DNA from: Candidatus Cloacimonadales bacterium
GTDB lineage: Bacteria; Cloacimonadota; Cloacimonadia; Cloacimonadales; JAIOQZ01
DNA: 64,000 nt
Assembly (NCBI GenBank): GCA_963662655.2
Contig: CAXXTU010000001.1
Span: 72,083 to 136,082 of the forward strand
Reading direction: 5' to 3'
Positions within the stretch are counted from its first letter, which is position 1. Each line of letters opens with the position of its first letter. The position numbers and the translations under genes were made by a program. Of the stretch, positions 15,358-61,625 are shown in pieces. The notes under the pieces are model-generated. The model saw nothing but the letters and a program-made list of their open reading frames with translations, was not told the DNA's origin and made no database searches.

Positions 15358-15472
15358 GCGCGGAGGCGGCGCAGAATCCCCGAAGGGGCTTCTGCATTCC
15401 ATTGCAATGTTTTCTTGCAAAAAACATTGCAATGGAATGTTAGTGCGCGGAGCGCACGCGCCGCCCCCGCGC
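15358..15472 (+). repeat. Family A four-way-junction palindromic element, copy A1
   Basis: Outer stem GCGCGGAGGCGGCGC/GCGCCGCCCCCGCGC encloses CCCC-GAA-GGGG, a 19-bp perfect stem and GTGCGC-GGA-GCGCAC. 30 nt (15438-15467) are identical to the reverse complement of 61508-61537. Confidence 0.8.
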
Positions 15473-15592
15473 AAGCGTGTCGAGCAAAACCCAGAGGGGC
15501 CTTCCCCTGAAAATTCGATTATCCCAACAATAAACTTTACAAATCAGGATATTCCAGCAACATGATCGTAAGATGAATTTTACGAGGATACG

Positions 15593-20326: not shown

Positions 20327-20432
20327 GGTGAGGCACATTCGCCCAATCTCCTCCCTTTACGGCTTATAACGACACAACGTTCGTTGTGTAAGAATACGCC
20401 TCGGGACAAGATTGAACGAATCTGCACTCCCC
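20327..20432 (-). repeat. Family H long-hairpin element, divergent copy H4
   Basis: Minus strand reads GCAGATTCGTTCAATC...GATTGGGCGAATGTGC, matching the H consensus with a compensatory G-C to A-T change. Confidence 0.7.
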
Positions 20433-33774: not shown

Positions 33775-33805
33775 AAACGGGAACAGGTCTCCTGTTCCCG
33801 TTTTT
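33775..33805 (+). terminator. Rho-independent terminator
   Basis: AAACGGGAACAGG-TCT-CCTGTTCCCGTTTTT after the pta stop. Confidence 0.85.
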
Positions 33806-33841
33806 CTATGCAATGTCAAACATCTGCAATTACCACCGCGA

Positions 33842-33967
33842 GGCGCGAGCAGGTTCGTTCGATCCGCTCTTCAGCGTGGTGTTTCACAGCGGAGTTTCAA
33901 TATCAACTTCCTTTCGGAGCTGTGGTATATCCACGTTGAAGAGCGGATCGGGCGAAGATGCCGCGCC
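33842..33967 (+). repeat. Family H long-hairpin element, copy H1
   Basis: GCAGGTTCGTTCGATCCGCTCTTCA...TGAAGAGCGGATCGGGCGAAGATGC; near-identical to 38945-39072. Confidence 0.9.
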
Positions 33968-34004: not shown

Positions 34005-36191
34005 CTATTTCAGCAGCATCATCTTCCTGACGATGCTCTTTTCTCCTGATACCAGACGATAGAAATATACGCCCGATGCGGCCGATTTACCTATATCGTC
34101 TCGCCCATTCCACACAACTTCGTGTTCTCCGGCCTGGAAATCGGGATAAGACATCACCTTCTGCCCTTTCAGATTATAAATGGTAAGATTTCCTACCTCT
34201 CCCCCGGCCACGCTGAAAGAAATGGTTGTGCTCGGATTGAACGGATTGGGGTAATTAGCATGAAGCGCTGTTACCGATTGAACCACCGGAATAACATCCT
34301 CATCTTCAACCGGTGAAACATTCTGCCAGGCCAAGTAGGGGTACCCGTTGTTGAAGTCGCTCAACATCGACCAATAATCCGCATTACCGTTCCCGGTTTC
34401 GTTGACAAAATCCCATCCTGCATCGAGATAGGTGGATAACGTCTGCATTTCTTCCGTCGTGAGGCCCGTTCCGCCAGCGCTCTCGGATTGTCCGGAGCTC
34501 TCGATATTCCAGAATGAATTATATATTCCGGCTTCGTTCACACTTCCGGCAAATCCGCCGACATCCTCGATACCGGATACACTTCCGACGCTATAGCATT
34601 TCGATATGGATGATTCCATTCCCAGATGCCCGACAAAACCACCGCATATCCGATCTCCGTTTACCACCGATTCGCTGTATGAATTGCTGATGGAAGCCAT
34701 AAAAGCTCTTCCGGTGAAGCCGCCGACGTATTCCTCACCCTCAACAAATCCGTCGCTGATACAATTATCCGTTGTCGAATAGCTACTATAACCCGCAAAA
34801 CCGCCAACATACTCCGTTCCGGAAACTGTTCCGCCCCATTTACAGAAACGCACGATAGAACCTGAATCTTGAAGCCCAATGAATCCACCGACCTTGCTTT
34901 CTCCCTGAACATCGCTATAACTATCGCAATGAACAACCGTTCCAACTCTATCAATCTTGCCGATAAAACCGCCAACATCAGTTGCGCCTCTCACATTTCC
35001 CGAACTCCAGCAATCCGTGACGATATACCCCCCGCAAGATCCAATAAACCCACCGACCATGTATCCACCAGCTACATCACCCGTGGCATAACAATCCCTA
35101 ACGACATATGTCTCTTCATCACAGGACAAAAGCCCCACAAAAGCTCCAACTGCTCTAATCGTACAATCGCCTGTTTCATCGTCAATATCACCAGTACTGT
35201 GGCAATTCTCAATTGTTGAGCGCTCAACAATTCCTGCGAAACCTCCAATACTAGCTTGATACCCGAACGAAAAACCTACAGAACAGATAAGATTACCTTC
35301 GCTGTAGCAGTCAGAGATATCGCTGGAACAAATCCTCCCAATGAAACCACCCACACTTCCAGATTGCCTCACAGCCAGAGGTATTGACATTGAAGAATAA
35401 CATCCAATCACTTCACTACTACCACACTGCCCGATAAAACCTCCAACACAAGAAAGGTAATCTGTATAATCGAATATTCCTGTACAGTAACAATTCTGGA
35501 TTAAACTCGAGTATACCCAGGCGATCAAACCACCTGCGTATATAAATGCTCGATCCGGTCGAGATAAACCACCGGCAAGTAAACCATCCGTCCAGCAATC
35601 CAAGATCGTCGAGTTCGCACATCTCCCAATTAACCCACCGACTTTGAAATCACTGTACATCTCACAACTGCTATGGCACCCGGAGATAACGCTTCCTGCA
35701 GAGCACTCGCCAATCAGACCACCGGTAAATAATTGAGCCGACTGGCATATCCTGCCGCTGGTATTGCAGTTAATAACCTGAGAACTATCACACAGGCATA
35801 TCATTCCGCCGATTATTTCATCCGCATCGATCATCAAGTTTGTCATGCCAAGGTTACGTATCTCCGCCTCGGATATCGTGCCGAACAATCCATTGCAATG
35901 CAGGCTGTCAATGACGTACCCCATCCCGTTATAAACACCCGTGAAAGCGTTATATCCGGGCAAATTCGCAATGCGAACAAAGGGATCATCAATTGTTTCA
36001 GAGGCATTGATATCGCAAGTTTGAATGAAGCGCTTCGTCCAGCTCAGGCCCGTAACGCTCATCCACCGCAGATTGGCGAGAGACTCTATTTGATAGGGAT
36101 TTTCAGATGTACCGTCACCTTCCGGTTGGGTAATTTCAGCAAAGGCACTCACAGCAATCATTAGAATAAAAAGTACGACACCAGTTTTCAC
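34005..36191 (-). CDS. GLUG-repeat secreted/surface protein with FlgD-Ig/T9SS-like C-terminal domain
   Basis: Signal peptide, 'GDGTSENPYQI', many 'VGGFxG...C(Y/W)SxGxV' repeats, 'NYPNPFNPSTTISF...RKMMLLK'. Confidence 0.85.
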   Translation of the reverse strand: MKTGVVLFILMIAVSAFAEITQPEGDGTSENPYQIESLANLRWMSVTGLSWTKRFIQTCDINASETIDDPFVRIANLPGYNAFTGVYNGMGYVIDSLHCNGLFGTISEAEIRNLGMTNLMIDADEIIGGMICLCDSSQVINCNTSGRICQSAQLFTGGLIGECSAGSVISGCHSSCEMYSDFKVGGLIGRCANSTILDCWTDGLLAGGLSRPDRAFIYAGGLIAWVYSSLIQNCYCTGIFDYTDYLSCVGGFIGQCGSSEVIGCYSSMSIPLAVRQSGSVGGFIGRICSSDISDCYSEGNLICSVGFSFGYQASIGGFAGIVERSTIENCHSTGDIDDETGDCTIRAVGAFVGLLSCDEETYVVRDCYATGDVAGGYMVGGFIGSCGGYIVTDCWSSGNVRGATDVGGFIGKIDRVGTVVHCDSYSDVQGESKVGGFIGLQDSGSIVRFCKWGGTVSGTEYVGGFAGYSSYSTTDNCISDGFVEGEEYVGGFTGRAFMASISNSYSESVVNGDRICGGFVGHLGMESSISKCYSVGSVSGIEDVGGFAGSVNEAGIYNSFWNIESSGQSESAGGTGLTTEEMQTLSTYLDAGWDFVNETGNGNADYWSMLSDFNNGYPYLAWQNVSPVEDEDVIPVVQSVTALHANYPNPFNPSTTISFSVAGGEVGNLTIYNLKGQKVMSYPDFQAGEHEVVWNGRDDIGKSAASGVYFYRLVSGEKSIVRKMMLLK

Positions 36192-36216
36192 TTCTACCTC
36201 CCAGAGTTGAATCAGA

Positions 36217-38859
36217 TCACTTCAGCAACATGATTTTTCGAACCAGGTTTTGCTTTTCTCCTTGCAAGCGACACAAATAGACACCCGATGCTACGGATTT
36301 TCCCACATCGTCTAGCCCATTCCACACGATATCGTGTTCTCCGGAGTGGAATACGGAGAAATCCTTCACCTTCTGCCCCTTAAGATTATAGATGGCAAGA
36401 CAGCCCGTCTCGCCATTGGCTACGCTGAAAGAAATGGTTGTGCTCGGGTTGAACGGATTGGGGTAATTGCCGCGCAAGGAAGTCGAGGACACCTTCAGCG
36501 CTATCCCTGGATCTTCCGCATCGAGGTATCCCTGCCAGCTAAGGAACGGATACCCGAAATTCACATTCGGGTTGAGTCCCCAGACATCGTCCAGCCCATT
36601 CACGCTTTCCCCCATGAAATCCCATCCCGCAGCGATAAACGTATCCTGCACCATCATCTCGTGCGATGGCAATCCGGTCGCTCCGGCATCTTCACTCTGC
36701 CCGGAGGTTTCAATGTCCCAGAATGAATGGCTGATGGTCATCTCGTCCGCGCTTCCCGCGAATCCCCCGACTTGATCCTCGCCTGACACTTCCCCGATCG
36801 AATAGCATCGCGTGATCGCACACTCTCCAGCCACGGAACCGAGGAATCCGCCCACGTTGCTCTTCCCGATAACGCTCCCCTGAGAATAACAGTCGAGCAC
36901 GTACGAATCTTCATTTACCCTGCCGAGAAATCCCCCGACATAGTCGCTGGCCGCAACTTGCCCATCGATGTAGCATTGTTCGATAACTGATGATGAAACC
37001 TTGCCGATCATGATTCCCGCATTTTGCTGGGCCTCTACAGCGCCATCCATCATGCATTCACGCACGATGGTTTCGTATTGCGACGAACCGGCGAGAATCC
37101 CGACGTTCTCTCGTCCCGTAACGGAAGCTGAAACAATGCGGATGTTTTCTACCACTGCATGATCGAGCCTTGCGAAAAAGCCCTGGTAATCGGATTCAGG
37201 ACGGTTGATAGTCAAATTGCTTAGCTGATACCCATTTCCGTCGTAGGATCCTCCGAATCGAATGTGTTCGTTACCAATCGGACTGAACCCTGTGTCGTTC
37301 AACCAGATGGATGCCTCGGATAGATCAATGTTATCCGTTTGCACAATATGCGACATCCACGCGCCTTCATTCACGCTCAGCCAGTACAGCTCATAGAGAT
37401 CGCCGACAAGGAACGGCTCGTCCTCCGTCCCATCTCCCAGTGGTCGCACGGGAGGCTGGTGTTCGTATTCTTCGTAATACTTGGAGAATGGATAGCCGTT
37501 ACTCACGGCAGGATTGATTTTCCAACGATATGATCCTGAATCACTCTGAAAGAGCCATTCGAATGCCTGATAGGTTGCCGGATTCCTCATCTCGCAGGTC
37601 GTACGGGCATTTCCACCCGCGCTTGTGGATTGTCCCGATGCCTGCGCATCGTAAAATGTCTTCATTGTATAGCAATCGTTTTCTCTTTCGGCAGTTATCC
37701 CGCCCGTTACACCCAGTCCCGATACTCTTCCCGCGTTGTAACAGCGCTCGATCCGGCTACCAAAGAAATTCCTTCCGGATATTCCACCAATGTAGTTTTC
37801 GCCTTCCACACTACCAAGATTGTAACTATAGAAGCAATCGGTTTCAAACGTGAGAACACCGGAGATTCCGCCAACGTCGATCGTTCCGATTACACGTCCA
37901 TGGTTGTTACAATAATAAACCACACCTGCGGTACTGTTTCCGAAAATTCCTCCGGTTTCCACTTCTCCAAGCACTTCTCCATGATTTGAGCATAGGTACA
38001 TGTCATCATTGTTGCTGAAACCGACTACTCCACCGACTTTCTCAAGACCCCTAACAACCCCTGAATTGTCTATGTAACCGAACATACATACATGAGAATA
38101 GCCAGCAACTCCACCCACAAGCGTATTTCCTGTCACATTTCCTTCGTTGTTGCAATAAAAAGTACTGCCGCTATTATAATATGATTCTCCGATCAACCCT
38201 CCGACTGATTGATTACCTGAAACCCAGCAATAATTAATCGAGGATTGCATATTAAAACCATACGCAAAGCCAATCATTCCACCAACCCGACAATCTCCGG
38301 CTATTTCACCCTCACTTGTACAATACAAAATAGATGTATAACGCATCTCTCCTACAAGTCCACCGACACTGCTATTGCCAGTAACCTCTCCCGCTAGAGT
38401 ACATGATTCGATGTAAGAATCTTGGCAGAATCCAATCATTCCCCCGACACAGCTATCGCCACGTACCGTGAAATCTACCAGATTCAGGCTATCGATTATC
38501 GCTTCCACCGCCACACCGAAAAGACCCTGATGTGTTGAATCGGGACGATCGATCACCAGGTTCATGATGGAATGCAGGTTGCCTTTGTAAACGCCGGTAA
38601 ATGCCATATCTTCACTGCAACCTATCGGTGAAAAGCCAGCGCCGTCGTTCCAATTCTCCGTATCGGAAGCATCGATGTCCGCAACCTGACTGAAATGCGA
38701 CGACCAACAGCTATCGGTCGTGCTTACCCACAAGAGATTGTCCAGCGTTTCAATCTGATAAGGATCCGCCTCCGTTCCCAGACCATCGGGGTGTGCCCCA
38801 TCCGAATATACATACACACAAAGCGCTACCATAAGCATAAACAATATCAATCGGCGCAC
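36217..38859 (-). CDS. GLUG-repeat secreted/surface protein with two modules and FlgD-Ig/T9SS-like C-terminal domain
   Basis: Start placed at GTG 38859 after GGGAGG. Two 'GxGTExxP' module starts, GLUG repeats, 'NYPNPFNPSTTISF...RKIMLLK'. Confidence 0.85.
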   Translation of the reverse strand: MRRLILFMLMVALCVYVYSDGAHPDGLGTEADPYQIETLDNLLWVSTTDSCWSSHFSQVADIDASDTENWNDGAGFSPIGCSEDMAFTGVYKGNLHSIMNLVIDRPDSTHQGLFGVAVEAIIDSLNLVDFTVRGDSCVGGMIGFCQDSYIESCTLAGEVTGNSSVGGLVGEMRYTSILYCTSEGEIAGDCRVGGMIGFAYGFNMQSSINYCWVSGNQSVGGLIGESYYNSGSTFYCNNEGNVTGNTLVGGVAGYSHVCMFGYIDNSGVVRGLEKVGGVVGFSNNDDMYLCSNHGEVLGEVETGGIFGNSTAGVVYYCNNHGRVIGTIDVGGISGVLTFETDCFYSYNLGSVEGENYIGGISGRNFFGSRIERCYNAGRVSGLGVTGGITAERENDCYTMKTFYDAQASGQSTSAGGNARTTCEMRNPATYQAFEWLFQSDSGSYRWKINPAVSNGYPFSKYYEEYEHQPPVRPLGDGTEDEPFLVGDLYELYWLSVNEGAWMSHIVQTDNIDLSEASIWLNDTGFSPIGNEHIRFGGSYDGNGYQLSNLTINRPESDYQGFFARLDHAVVENIRIVSASVTGRENVGILAGSSQYETIVRECMMDGAVEAQQNAGIMIGKVSSSVIEQCYIDGQVAASDYVGGFLGRVNEDSYVLDCYSQGSVIGKSNVGGFLGSVAGECAITRCYSIGEVSGEDQVGGFAGSADEMTISHSFWDIETSGQSEDAGATGLPSHEMMVQDTFIAAGWDFMGESVNGLDDVWGLNPNVNFGYPFLSWQGYLDAEDPGIALKVSSTSLRGNYPNPFNPSTTISFSVANGETGCLAIYNLKGQKVKDFSVFHSGEHDIVWNGLDDVGKSVASGVYLCRLQGEKQNLVRKIMLLK

Positions 38860-38944
38860 AATTCCTCCCTTACCAGTTGATCCGGCTACCGTTACGAACA
38901 ATGATTACCCGATTGTAACTTGTCTTGTCAAGTAATTAAGCAGA

Positions 38945-39072
38945 GGCGGGAGCAGGTTCGTTTGATCCGCTCTTCAGCGTGGTGTTTCACAGCGGAGATT
39001 TTTATCATCAATCTCCTTTCGGAGCTGTGGTATATCCACGGTGAAGAGCGGATCGGGCGAAGATGCCACGCC
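38945..39072 (+). repeat. Family H long-hairpin element, copy H2
   Basis: Direct repeat of H1, differing mainly in the apical loop and a few stem positions. Confidence 0.9.
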
Positions 39073-49310: not shown

Positions 49311-49438
49311 GACGTTAGCAGATTCGTTCGATCCCCGCCTGCACAGGGTGTTCCACAGCCTTGTCGCCTTACATTAGTCCATTCTCAAGGGTGTGGTATA
49401 TCCCTGTGCAGGCGGGGATCGGGCGAAGATGCCACGTC
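49311..49438 (+). repeat. Family H long-hairpin element, copy H3
   Basis: GCAGATTCGTTCGATCCCCGCCTGCACAGGG...CCCTGTGCAGGCGGGGATCGGGCGAAGATGC; boxes conserved while the connecting stem is replaced. Confidence 0.85.
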
Positions 49439-49447
49439 GTTAGCGCA

Positions 49448-49960
49448 TTACACTTCCACCCAATACTGCCGGAACAGCTTACCTTCATACGTGGAAGTGG
49501 TATACTCCTTCCCGCCGTTGTTCTCGATCGTCTTCGCCGAACCGATATTGTCGTCGTGGCAAGTGATCAGAACACTTTCGTATCCCTTGTTCCGGGCAAT
49601 CGCCAGCATGTGGCGTAGCATGAGCGTCGCGTAACCCTTCCTGCGCTCGGTAGGACGTACTCCGTAACCGATATGTCCGCCGAAATGCTCCAGAAAATCA
49701 TTGAGCTCATGCCGAAATTGGATCGCGCCACAAATACGCCCCCGGGCATCGACCAGGTAGTACAACGTTGCGGGAACCAGTCCCGGCTCGCACGTTTCCC
49801 ACGATGAAGCCAATTCCCAATATTCCTTAAGCTCCTCGTACGTGAGCTTCCCATTGATGATCGCCGAAGGAGATACCGGTTCGCCCGATGCGAGAATCTC
49901 CTCGATGTATTCATAGTAAGCTTCTCTCGTAATTCCATCAAATCTAACAAGTCGCATCAT
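49448..49960 (-). CDS. GNAT family acetyltransferase
   Basis: 'FRHELNDFL...GGHIGYGVRPTERRKGYAT', 'NIGSAKTIENNGG'; ATG 49960 after AAGGAG. Confidence 0.9.
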   Translation of the reverse strand: MMRLVRFDGITREAYYEYIEEILASGEPVSPSAIINGKLTYEELKEYWELASSWETCEPGLVPATLYYLVDARGRICGAIQFRHELNDFLEHFGGHIGYGVRPTERRKGYATLMLRHMLAIARNKGYESVLITCHDDNIGSAKTIENNGGKEYTTSTYEGKLFRQYWVEV

Positions 49961-49991
49961 AACTCCTTCATCGTTTCGAGACGTTAGCGCT

Positions 49992-50501
49992 TTACAATTC
50001 AATCCAATACTGCCGGAACAGCATACCTTCATACGTGGAAGTGGTGAATTCCCTCACGCCGTTGTTCTCGATTGTTTTGGCCGAACCGATATTGTCGTCG
50101 TTGCAGGTGATGAACACACGGTCATAGCCTTTCTCGCGAGCCACATCCAGCATCATCTTCAGCATCATAGTTGCATACCCTTTCCGCCGCTCGGATGGAC
50201 GAACGATATATCCGATGTGACCACCGAAGTGCTTCAGGAAGTCGTTGAGCTCGTGCCGGAAATGGGTCGAGCCATAGATTCGCCCCTTATCGCTGACCAT
50301 GAAATACAATGTCGATGGCATCCAACCGTCAGGACAATTCTCTACCATCGTCTCGTCTCTCCATTGCTCAACCGTCTCCTCGAATGAACATGTCTCCCGC
50401 ACAAGCACCGACGGCACACTGATTTCTCCCGCCTCATCCAGCTCTCGGATGTAATCGTTGTATTCTTTCTCCGTAATCTTGTCGTATGGCACCAGTTTCA
50501 C
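49992..50501 (-). CDS. GNAT family acetyltransferase, tandem paralog
   Basis: 'GGHIGYIVRPSERRKGYAT', 'NIGSAKTIENNG'; 3' end nearly identical to the neighbour at DNA level. Confidence 0.9.
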   Translation of the reverse strand: MKLVPYDKITEKEYNDYIRELDEAGEISVPSVLVRETCSFEETVEQWRDETMVENCPDGWMPSTLYFMVSDKGRIYGSTHFRHELNDFLKHFGGHIGYIVRPSERRKGYATMMLKMMLDVAREKGYDRVFITCNDDNIGSAKTIENNGVREFTTSTYEGMLFRQYWIEL

Positions 50502-53375: not shown

Positions 53376-53523
53376 TCACTCTGACTACCTCAATGTCACT
53401 CTGACTACCTAAATGTCACCATGACTACCTCATTGTCACTCTGAGCGGAGTCGAAGGGGCATTCTCACTACCTCAATGTCAGCATGACTACCTCAATGTC
53501 ACCTTGAGCGGAGTCGAAGGGGC
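53376..53523. repeat. Composite tandem array of 20-nt units and REP-like units
   Basis: Five TCACTCTGACTACCTCAATG-like units interleaved with two TCAC(TC/CT)TGAGCGGAGTCGAAGGGGC units. Confidence 0.85.
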
Positions 53524-61491: not shown

Positions 61492-61625
61492 GCACCAGCC
61501 TCGCGGCGGGGCGGCGCGTGCGCTCCGCGCACTAACAGCAATTTGAGAAGTTTCTCGGCAGAAACTTCTCAAAATGCTGCCGAAGCCTGAAAGGCTTCAG
61601 CGCCGCCCCGCCGCGAGGCTAGTGC
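61492..61625 (-). repeat. Family A four-way-junction palindromic element, copy A3
   Basis: Perfect 21-bp outer stem (61497-61517 with 61600-61620) encloses three hairpins in the same order as A1 and A2 when read on the minus strand. Confidence 0.8.

Follow-up and report, generated by a model that had tools for sequence, protein, structure and literature searches.

The window analysed here, the whole stretch of 64,000 nucleotides, holds a long imperfect hairpin (H1, Table 1) that an earlier note had likened to the attC sites of integrons, and it raises the question of what kind of element this is and what acts on it. The four copies claimed for the family (H1 to H4) were all confirmed in position and strand, but four was a large underestimate: an iterated profile search of the whole host genome (G000; 3.81 Mb in 2 contigs, 99% complete) turned up 134 loci. 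Of these, 127 reach 100 nt or more and just 7 are partial copies. The same profile found 0 matches in the reversed contig, and a second profile added 3 weak loci in G000. We read family H as a genus-specific dispersed repeat, probably a non-autonomous mobile ssDNA hairpin that would be folded as the strand carrying the non-canonical pairs (H+, the + strand for H1) and served by a putative trans-acting enzyme whose gene does not lie next to H; we give this reading a probability of about 0.45.

Table 1. Coordinates in the window of the four H copies, the parts of H1 and a neighbouring terminator-like site
Feature	Positions	Strand	Remarks
H1, whole element	33842..33967	+	+ strand bears the non-canonical pairs (H+)
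H1 outer stem, left arm (6 bp) and bulged A	33842..33848	+	pairs with 33962-33967; own linkage block
H1 box 1, left arm	33849..33864	+	pairs with 33946-33961; a 3-bp stem, then a 2x2 purine loop and a stem bearing two T-G wobbles
H1 mid stem, left arm	33865..33875	+	exchangeable module, partner arm at 33935-33945
H1 box 2, left arm	33876..33887	+	GTG-N6-CAC, TGTT core
H1 variable apex	33888..33921	+	about 10 to 300 nt within family H
H1 box 2, right arm	33922..33934	+	GTG-N7-CAC, TATAT core, bulged T
H1 right arms of box 1 and outer stem	33946..33967	+	
H2	38945..39072	+	closest relative of H1
H3	49311..49438	+	
H4	20327..20432	-	divergent copy; box 2 arm-swapped, replication polarity reversed
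Terminator-like site, pta-H1 interval	33776..33806	+	context; outside the H element

H1 folds much better than its shuffled versions both as DNA (z -9.2) and as RNA (z -10.2). The anatomy was parsed in 114 of the 134 copies, the other 20 being left out where the anchor failed, and runs from base to apex through a 6-bp outer stem, a bulged A, a 3-bp stem, a 2x2 loop, box 1, a mid stem, box 2 and the apex. The imperfections had been described as G-T wobbles only. They also include a purine-purine 2x2 loop (112 and 111 of the 114 parsed copies), a T-T mismatch, a bulged T and the bulged A (100 copies), next to the two T-G wobbles of box 1 (98 and 101 copies); in box 2 the G-T pair is found in 113 copies, the T-T mismatch in all 114 and the bulged T in 113. 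These features are near-invariant and all lie on one strand, H+, while the stems covary strongly. Of the 46 pairs in an alignment of 29 sequences, 25 show changes on both sides (0 of 500 shuffles), and 92% of cells pair compared with 79% in shuffles, in a test that leans toward the drawn structure since the structure was drawn from the same alignment.

The mid stem is 9 to 12 bp long and either fully paired or interrupted by a GNA/GNA loop (46 of 114). GTG and CAC bracket each of the two box 2 arms, and the box mostly starts with GTGG or GTAG and ends with the complement, variants with GGGG, AGGG and ATGG being common. Box 2 had been claimed for all four window copies; H4 has no canonical box 2 but a variant with the arms swapped. 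Both orders of the box 2 arms are likewise seen on the same strand among short forms of the element (22 vs 8). The apex ranges from a few bases to about 300 nt and may hold internal tandem repeats. In one copy (G000:C2:1736696-1737100) it contains about four tandem stem-loop units of ~72 nt, a unit that is single in other long copies. At two places (G000:C2:89995-90315 and 414241-414570), a canonical and a divergent H stand tail-to-tail without an intervening gene.

The tip of short forms is C-GNA-G in 28 of 30, and among 32 long copies 16 of 27 well-closed three-base loops are GNA, with no tetraloops; these loop counts are of copies, not of independent events. GNA loops closed by C-G are described as very stable in DNA (PMC3201870). 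The excess of GNA is absent from an unfiltered triloop count (41 of 407 vs 633 of 5856). H+ is the strand with the lower-energy fold as DNA in 114 of 127 copies and with the better fold as RNA in 125 of 127, and the strand asymmetry of folding energy is larger for RNA (-13.3 kcal/mol) than for DNA (-3.5 kcal/mol).

All 134 copies lie between called genes (our own gene calls, 2885 genes). They are spread evenly over the chromosome on both strands, with 6 to 17 copies per tenth, a median spacing of 16 kb and a spacing CV of 1.05, which corresponds to random. The gene context is convergent for 55 copies, tandem-antisense for 48, tandem-sense for 21 and divergent for 10, so that convergent gaps are enriched (55/134 for H vs 150/995). 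Direct repeats of 3 to 8 nt that could represent a target-site duplication are at chance level in 129 copies, although old ones may have decayed.

A covariance-model search of the genome and the phylum, which the earlier note had proposed, found many copies and confined them to one genus. The three congeners (G001, G002 and G003) yielded at least 34, 38 and 63 matches when 150 candidates were scored in each and opposite-strand matches were counted; two sister-genus genomes yielded none, and in 151 phylum genomes with 21 candidates scored each the matches were in the one genus only. A blastn search was negative in 37 of 37 other genomes. Ten pattern matches outside Cloacimonadales and 6 metagenome matches all failed the covariance model, and a second metagenome and two viral scans gave 0 matches. 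The outer stem consensus differs between G000 and its congeners, which suggests that H spread within each lineage. We found no description of the family or of its combination of features in a searched literature that largely excluded subscription journals; the available text of PMC11129491 has nothing on repeats.

Whole H units have been gained or lost at syntenic junctions between congeners; in 7 empty-site alignments the sequences are too diverged to fix the ends of the element. In all three congeners, the orthologous genes have no counterpart of H1 or H2 within 1.5 kb. In the window, H1 and the near-identical H2 bracket two paralogous GLUG/T9SS-tail genes (34005-38901), and in the congeners pta and the 207-aa gene of this region are not adjoining. 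A tandem duplication of GNAT genes (49438-50501) has a duplicated segment that begins at the 3' foot of H3. In G002, two H copies of G000 type flank ~10 kb of genes without close G000 orthologues (L067), while the other H copies of that genome are mostly of a different outer-stem type; transfer and mis-binning are the alternatives for this pair. The same gene block with H also occurs on two G002 contigs at about 96% identity (L071 and L081), perhaps a strain mixture.

The feature of H that bears most directly on its nature is orientation. In each of the four window copies the structured strand had been described as antisense to a gene ending 10 to 80 nt away, and we confirmed the antisense arrangement, with distances of 38, 79, 10 and 51 nt from the 3' side of H1 to H4. 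The rule holds for 103 of 134 copies in the host and breaks down in the congeners (just 26 of 50), and its counts are better explained by replication polarity together with convergent-gap enrichment. The suggested check of orientation bias over many copies did reveal a non-random distribution, one that tracks replication rather than genes. On contig C2, H+ lies on the C-rich strand in 95 of 126 copies. Judged by local skew, 99 of 127 full-length copies have this usual polarity and 28 are reversed, and in the congeners 87 of 90 have it (24/24, 28/28 and 35/38), in a sample of 60 stretches fetched from the covariance-model match list rather than whole genomes. Third-codon skew served poorly as a local proxy, being dependent on gene strand.

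The G-rich strand carries both 16S genes, and the C-rich strand was therefore taken as the leading-strand template, that is, the nascent lagging strand. In the convergent and divergent gaps of contig C2, where gene orientation predicts nothing, the usual polarity still prevails (37:15 and 10:0), so replication explains more than genes do. Next to tandem genes on the lagging strand the excess is reversed, 10 copies being antisense and 15 sense. The orientation of H thus follows replication and not genes, with H+ as the leading-strand template. Four other repeat families of G000 are without replication bias (12:20, 4:7, 7:6 and 6:7). Among copies with clear skew, polarity depends on box 2: the usual polarity is found in 81 of 92 copies with an intact box 2 core and in 12 of 23 with an altered one (Fisher p 3.7e-4, post hoc), and mismatches in box 1 have no effect (p 0.83, post hoc). 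This link fits removal of intact copies from the lagging-strand template, and it fits as well a polarity set at insertion and then scrambled by inversions in old inactive copies.

The second line of evidence comes from linkage. When each base pair was treated as an allele in 104 copies, the median linkage z was 4.3 within the outer stem, 5.2 within the mid stem and 6.4 within the inner part and apex. Linkage between outer and mid stems breaks at box 1 (left arm of H1, 33849..33864), with a median z of 0.0 across the box and 0 of 77 pairs above 4; across box 2, linkage between mid and inner parts is weak (median z 1.9, 23% of 99 pairs above 4). Outer stem, mid stem and apex are therefore three separate linkage blocks, and arms 100 nt apart travel together where neighbours 16 nt apart do not. 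Mid stems are unrelated in 39% of 36 pairs of copies whose apices are at least 90% alike. Interior replacement is also seen at 10 orthologous, syntenic sites of G002 and G003, where the outer stems are 87 to 100% alike in all 10 and the cores are 96 to 100% alike in 4 and only 38 to 82% in 6, the median for paralogues being 68%. One of these sites has a short form in one genome and a standard form in the other, and some orthologous cores are more conserved than their own flanks.

A putative enzyme could connect these observations. It would bind the two-fold symmetric box 2 and act on fork-associated ssDNA. Active copies would end up with H+ on the leading-strand template through insertion bias, or else copies exposed on the lagging-strand template would be removed, and altered copies would drift to random polarity. 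Exchange between two folded hairpins would involve both arms and occur at box 1, more rarely at box 2, swapping everything apical of the box while the flanking genes stay. The stronger version of this model, in which an undescribed fork-gated ssDNA recombination recognises folded boxes, exchanges both strands between hairpins and so swaps nested modules among ~130 sites across the chromosome, with flanking genes left in place and box 2 re-entering in either direction, is in our judgment rather unlikely. Several observations speak against the model. Family searches found no enzyme, the contigs showed no intermediate of excision or insertion (contig joints at H, with sides of 20-26 nt, were left aside), and the IS200/IS605 enzymes use the lagging-strand template (PMC6006769), whereas H+ sits on the leading one. 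The 28 reversed full-length copies, the folding asymmetry that is larger as RNA than as DNA and the loss of the GNA excess in the unfiltered triloop count are further difficulties, and ectopic gene conversion ending in the boxes, combined with selection on pairing, would give the same linkage blocks.

The enzyme search was carried out by named family in G000 and 4 to 7 relatives. The co-occurring tyrosine recombinase or HUH/RAYT gene that the earlier note had proposed to look for was not found linked to H. Among the Y1 loci of relatives, 0 of 17 carry H within 1.5 kb, and the same is true of all fetched loci of candidate enzyme genes in relatives. IS110 is present only in G002 and a resolvase only in G001, neither of them in G000; DUF559 is missing from G000, PDDEXK_3 from the genus and RecT from all 6 genomes searched, G000 included. 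A four-helix IVP is found in 3 of 5 genomes. Reverse transcriptase is absent from G001 and the G000 gene has a stop, and the Y2 search matched 0 of 5 genomes and no control genome either. Clustering of the proteins adjacent to H gave no recurrent nuclease, the largest cluster consisting of secreted T9SS-tail proteins.

XerC- and XerD-like proteins were the only recombinases seen in all four genomes, as judged from the size and sequence of the two best tyrosine recombinases. XerD adjoins one H copy in G000 and was rejected as a linked enzyme, this adjacency being missing in the three congeners. A dif-like 27-mer candidate lies near the cumulative GC-skew maximum (G000:C2:796583), and its arms show no clear match to box 1 or box 2 by eye. 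GIY-YIG genes were also set aside. In G001 (L128) a small gene of this kind is flanked by the motif of another repeat family.

Some further loci are of note. That second repeat family, found in the window at 53377-53522, has 41 clusters in G000 and no replication bias, and its motif flanks the small G001 gene; the small GIY-YIG gene of G000 (L137) has an in-frame stop. A GC-rich inverted-repeat family (window 61492-61625 and 15411-15475) also has 41 clusters genome-wide. In G002, two IS110 families have expanded to 17 copies, and 0 of 8 fetched loci adjoin H (L217-L224). In G003 and G001 (L112, L113), xerC has as its tail-to-tail neighbour an IS200-like Y1 gene of 137 aa that carries hairpins of its own; G000 lacks it at this place. 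A short tyrosine recombinase consisting of the catalytic domain only adjoins rplM-rpsI; it is frameshifted in G000 and intact in G003 (L006 and L107).

The alternative that survives best needs no dedicated enzyme for exchange. H would be a passive ERIC- or REPIN-like repeat whose RAYT has since been lost from G000, with RecA-type ectopic conversion ending in the boxes and making the mosaics, and with polarity arising because the more stable fold is selected against when it lies on the lagging-strand template. We consider this possible, though on the whole unlikely. In keeping with it, Y1 transposases occur in the congeners but are missing from G000, each swap seen can be represented by a single continuous tract, and H+ has the lower-energy DNA fold in most copies, as given above. 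Exact local tandem duplications of H were seen in G002 and G003, as in REPIN clusters (PMC3116915). In these two genomes H also often lies in mosaics of fixed order with repeat types found beside Y1 and DUF559 genes (23 of 66 on the 5' side and 22 of 90 on the 3' side); in G000, however, only 1 of 134 copies has such a neighbouring repeat, and no RAYT is flanked by H. One-armed conversions should moreover be common under passive conversion, whereas the mid arms mostly stay matched, with just 14 of 113 pairing worse than the cross-copy median. The preservation of the imperfections in nearly all copies, the few partial copies, and the dependence of polarity on box 2 and not on box 1 also count against it.

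A structured RNA, acting as a 3'-UTR stabiliser, a terminator or an antisense RNA, appears improbable. It would explain the 95 gene ends that lie less than 45 nt from H and are not separated from it by a terminator-like site, as well as the convergent-gap enrichment, and G-U wobbles and tandem GA pairs suit RNA, as does the better RNA fold of H+. Yet the same enrichment is common to mobile repeats (PMC3049150), and of 84 gene ends lying farther away, 45 are followed by a terminator-like site of their own ahead of H, as is pta. Orientation goes with the replichore in every gene context, including the flipped ratio at lagging-strand tandem genes. Comparison with Rfam, which had been suggested as a way to detect a known family, gave 0 of 4227 families above the gathering threshold and one chance-level match (E 7.6). 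The antisense RNA that had been put forward earlier is disfavoured, since orientation tracks the replichore rather than transcription.

Similarly, there is little chance that H is a polar chromosome signal domesticated by the host, such as a structured ssDNA site at which replication restarts or a fork-associated protein is loaded. Strong polarity, an even spread over the chromosome, near-invariant boxes and the orthologous cores that are more conserved than their flanks would all be expected of such a signal; random spacing, a restriction to one genus and the gain and loss of sites between congeners would not.

Most improbable of all is that H copies are solitary attC-type sites for cassette recombination by an integron-like integrase, a membership that is largely refuted by the near absence of the RYYYAAC and GTTRRRY core motifs (in just 1 and 2 of 129 copies, as had been noted for the window copies), by the lack of arrays and by an IntI model (TIGR02249) that stays under its cut-off in 8 of 8 genomes. 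What stood of the earlier comparison is the strand-specific, two-box hairpin with a variable apex, likely ssDNA and without an Rfam match; the cassette-site reading did not. The shared anatomy, the orientation on the leading-strand template, which is that of sedentary integron attC sites in 25 of 30 arrays (PMC5371416), and the position of 12 of 114 nearest neighbours within 20 kb are in its favour, as is one indel of a gene plus H (L053 vs L072/L204). In that indel, however, both outer arms of the single H match the same one of the two copies, which means that it is not a hybrid.

The predicted link to gene-content variation did not appear either. Of 164 congener genes adjacent to H, G000 lacks 27, compared with 58 of 273 other genes next to long gaps (p 0.26), and the antisense 3' neighbours are mostly shared genes (missing from G000 in just 4 of 50). 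Breakpoints among congeners are not enriched at H (52/132 vs 91/252, in directional and non-independent counts). An apparent enrichment of breakpoints relative to G000 (30/39 vs 46/102, p 7e-4) was discarded when it vanished on stratification by gene orientation (tandem 12/19 vs 22/61, p 0.06).

Returning to a mobile ssDNA hairpin as the preferred reading, H can be placed among known systems. Like REPINs and REP-BIMEs, it is dispersed, extragenic and ~100-140 nt long, has conserved ends with spacer length and pairing kept by compensatory changes, and forms local tandem clusters without a detected target duplication (PMC3116915, PMC6006769). In many copies the inner part opens with GT[AG]G and closes with C[TC]AC, which may correspond to the 'double foot' described for subclass 2.4 REPs (PMC6006769), other openings being common as well. 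Unlike these elements, H is built not from two inverted REPs but from a pair of nested boxes whose mismatches are fixed, no RAYT is present at all in G000, and polarity and module exchange of the kind seen in H were not found reported in the available text of PMC3116915 and PMC6006769. With integron attC sites it shares the strand-specific imperfect hairpin, the unpaired bases, the variable terminal structure and a structured strand on the leading-strand template (PMC5371416); unlike them it has no core motifs, IntI or arrays, its neighbours are not cassette-like, and its boxes are conserved in sequence over 12 to 16 bp.

The ends of IS200/IS605 elements resemble H in their strand-specific hairpin, fork-tied recognition and orientation bias (PMC6006769, PMC3971601), whereas H is one nested hairpin and not two ends, lies on the leading and not the lagging template, and has no TnpA in G000. 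ERIC, BOX, RUP and SPRITE are likewise folded repeats of ~130 nt with ~100 copies and enrichment in convergent gaps, and BOX shares modular length variation with H; BOX and RUP have target duplications, unlike H (PMC3049150). All three pneumococcal repeats have a leading-strand bias of 61 to 63% that mirrors the genes, compared with 78 to 97% for H, independent of genes (PMC3049150). H is thus attC-like in anatomy and polarity and REPIN-like in dispersal, and it fails the defining tests of both. It is a real family, undescribed as far as searched, and a variant of dispersed ssDNA-type repeats with two unusual properties.

The family touches on the question of how REP-like repeats and attC sites originate, diversify and keep their fold, and it gives sharp, testable predictions as to which strand, which box and where exchange happens. 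If an enzyme does exchange modules between folded hairpins, it would add a new activity to ssDNA recombination and might serve as an editing tool. Should the passive explanation be true, H would still document gene conversion and fork-related selection on hairpins in nature with unusual clarity.
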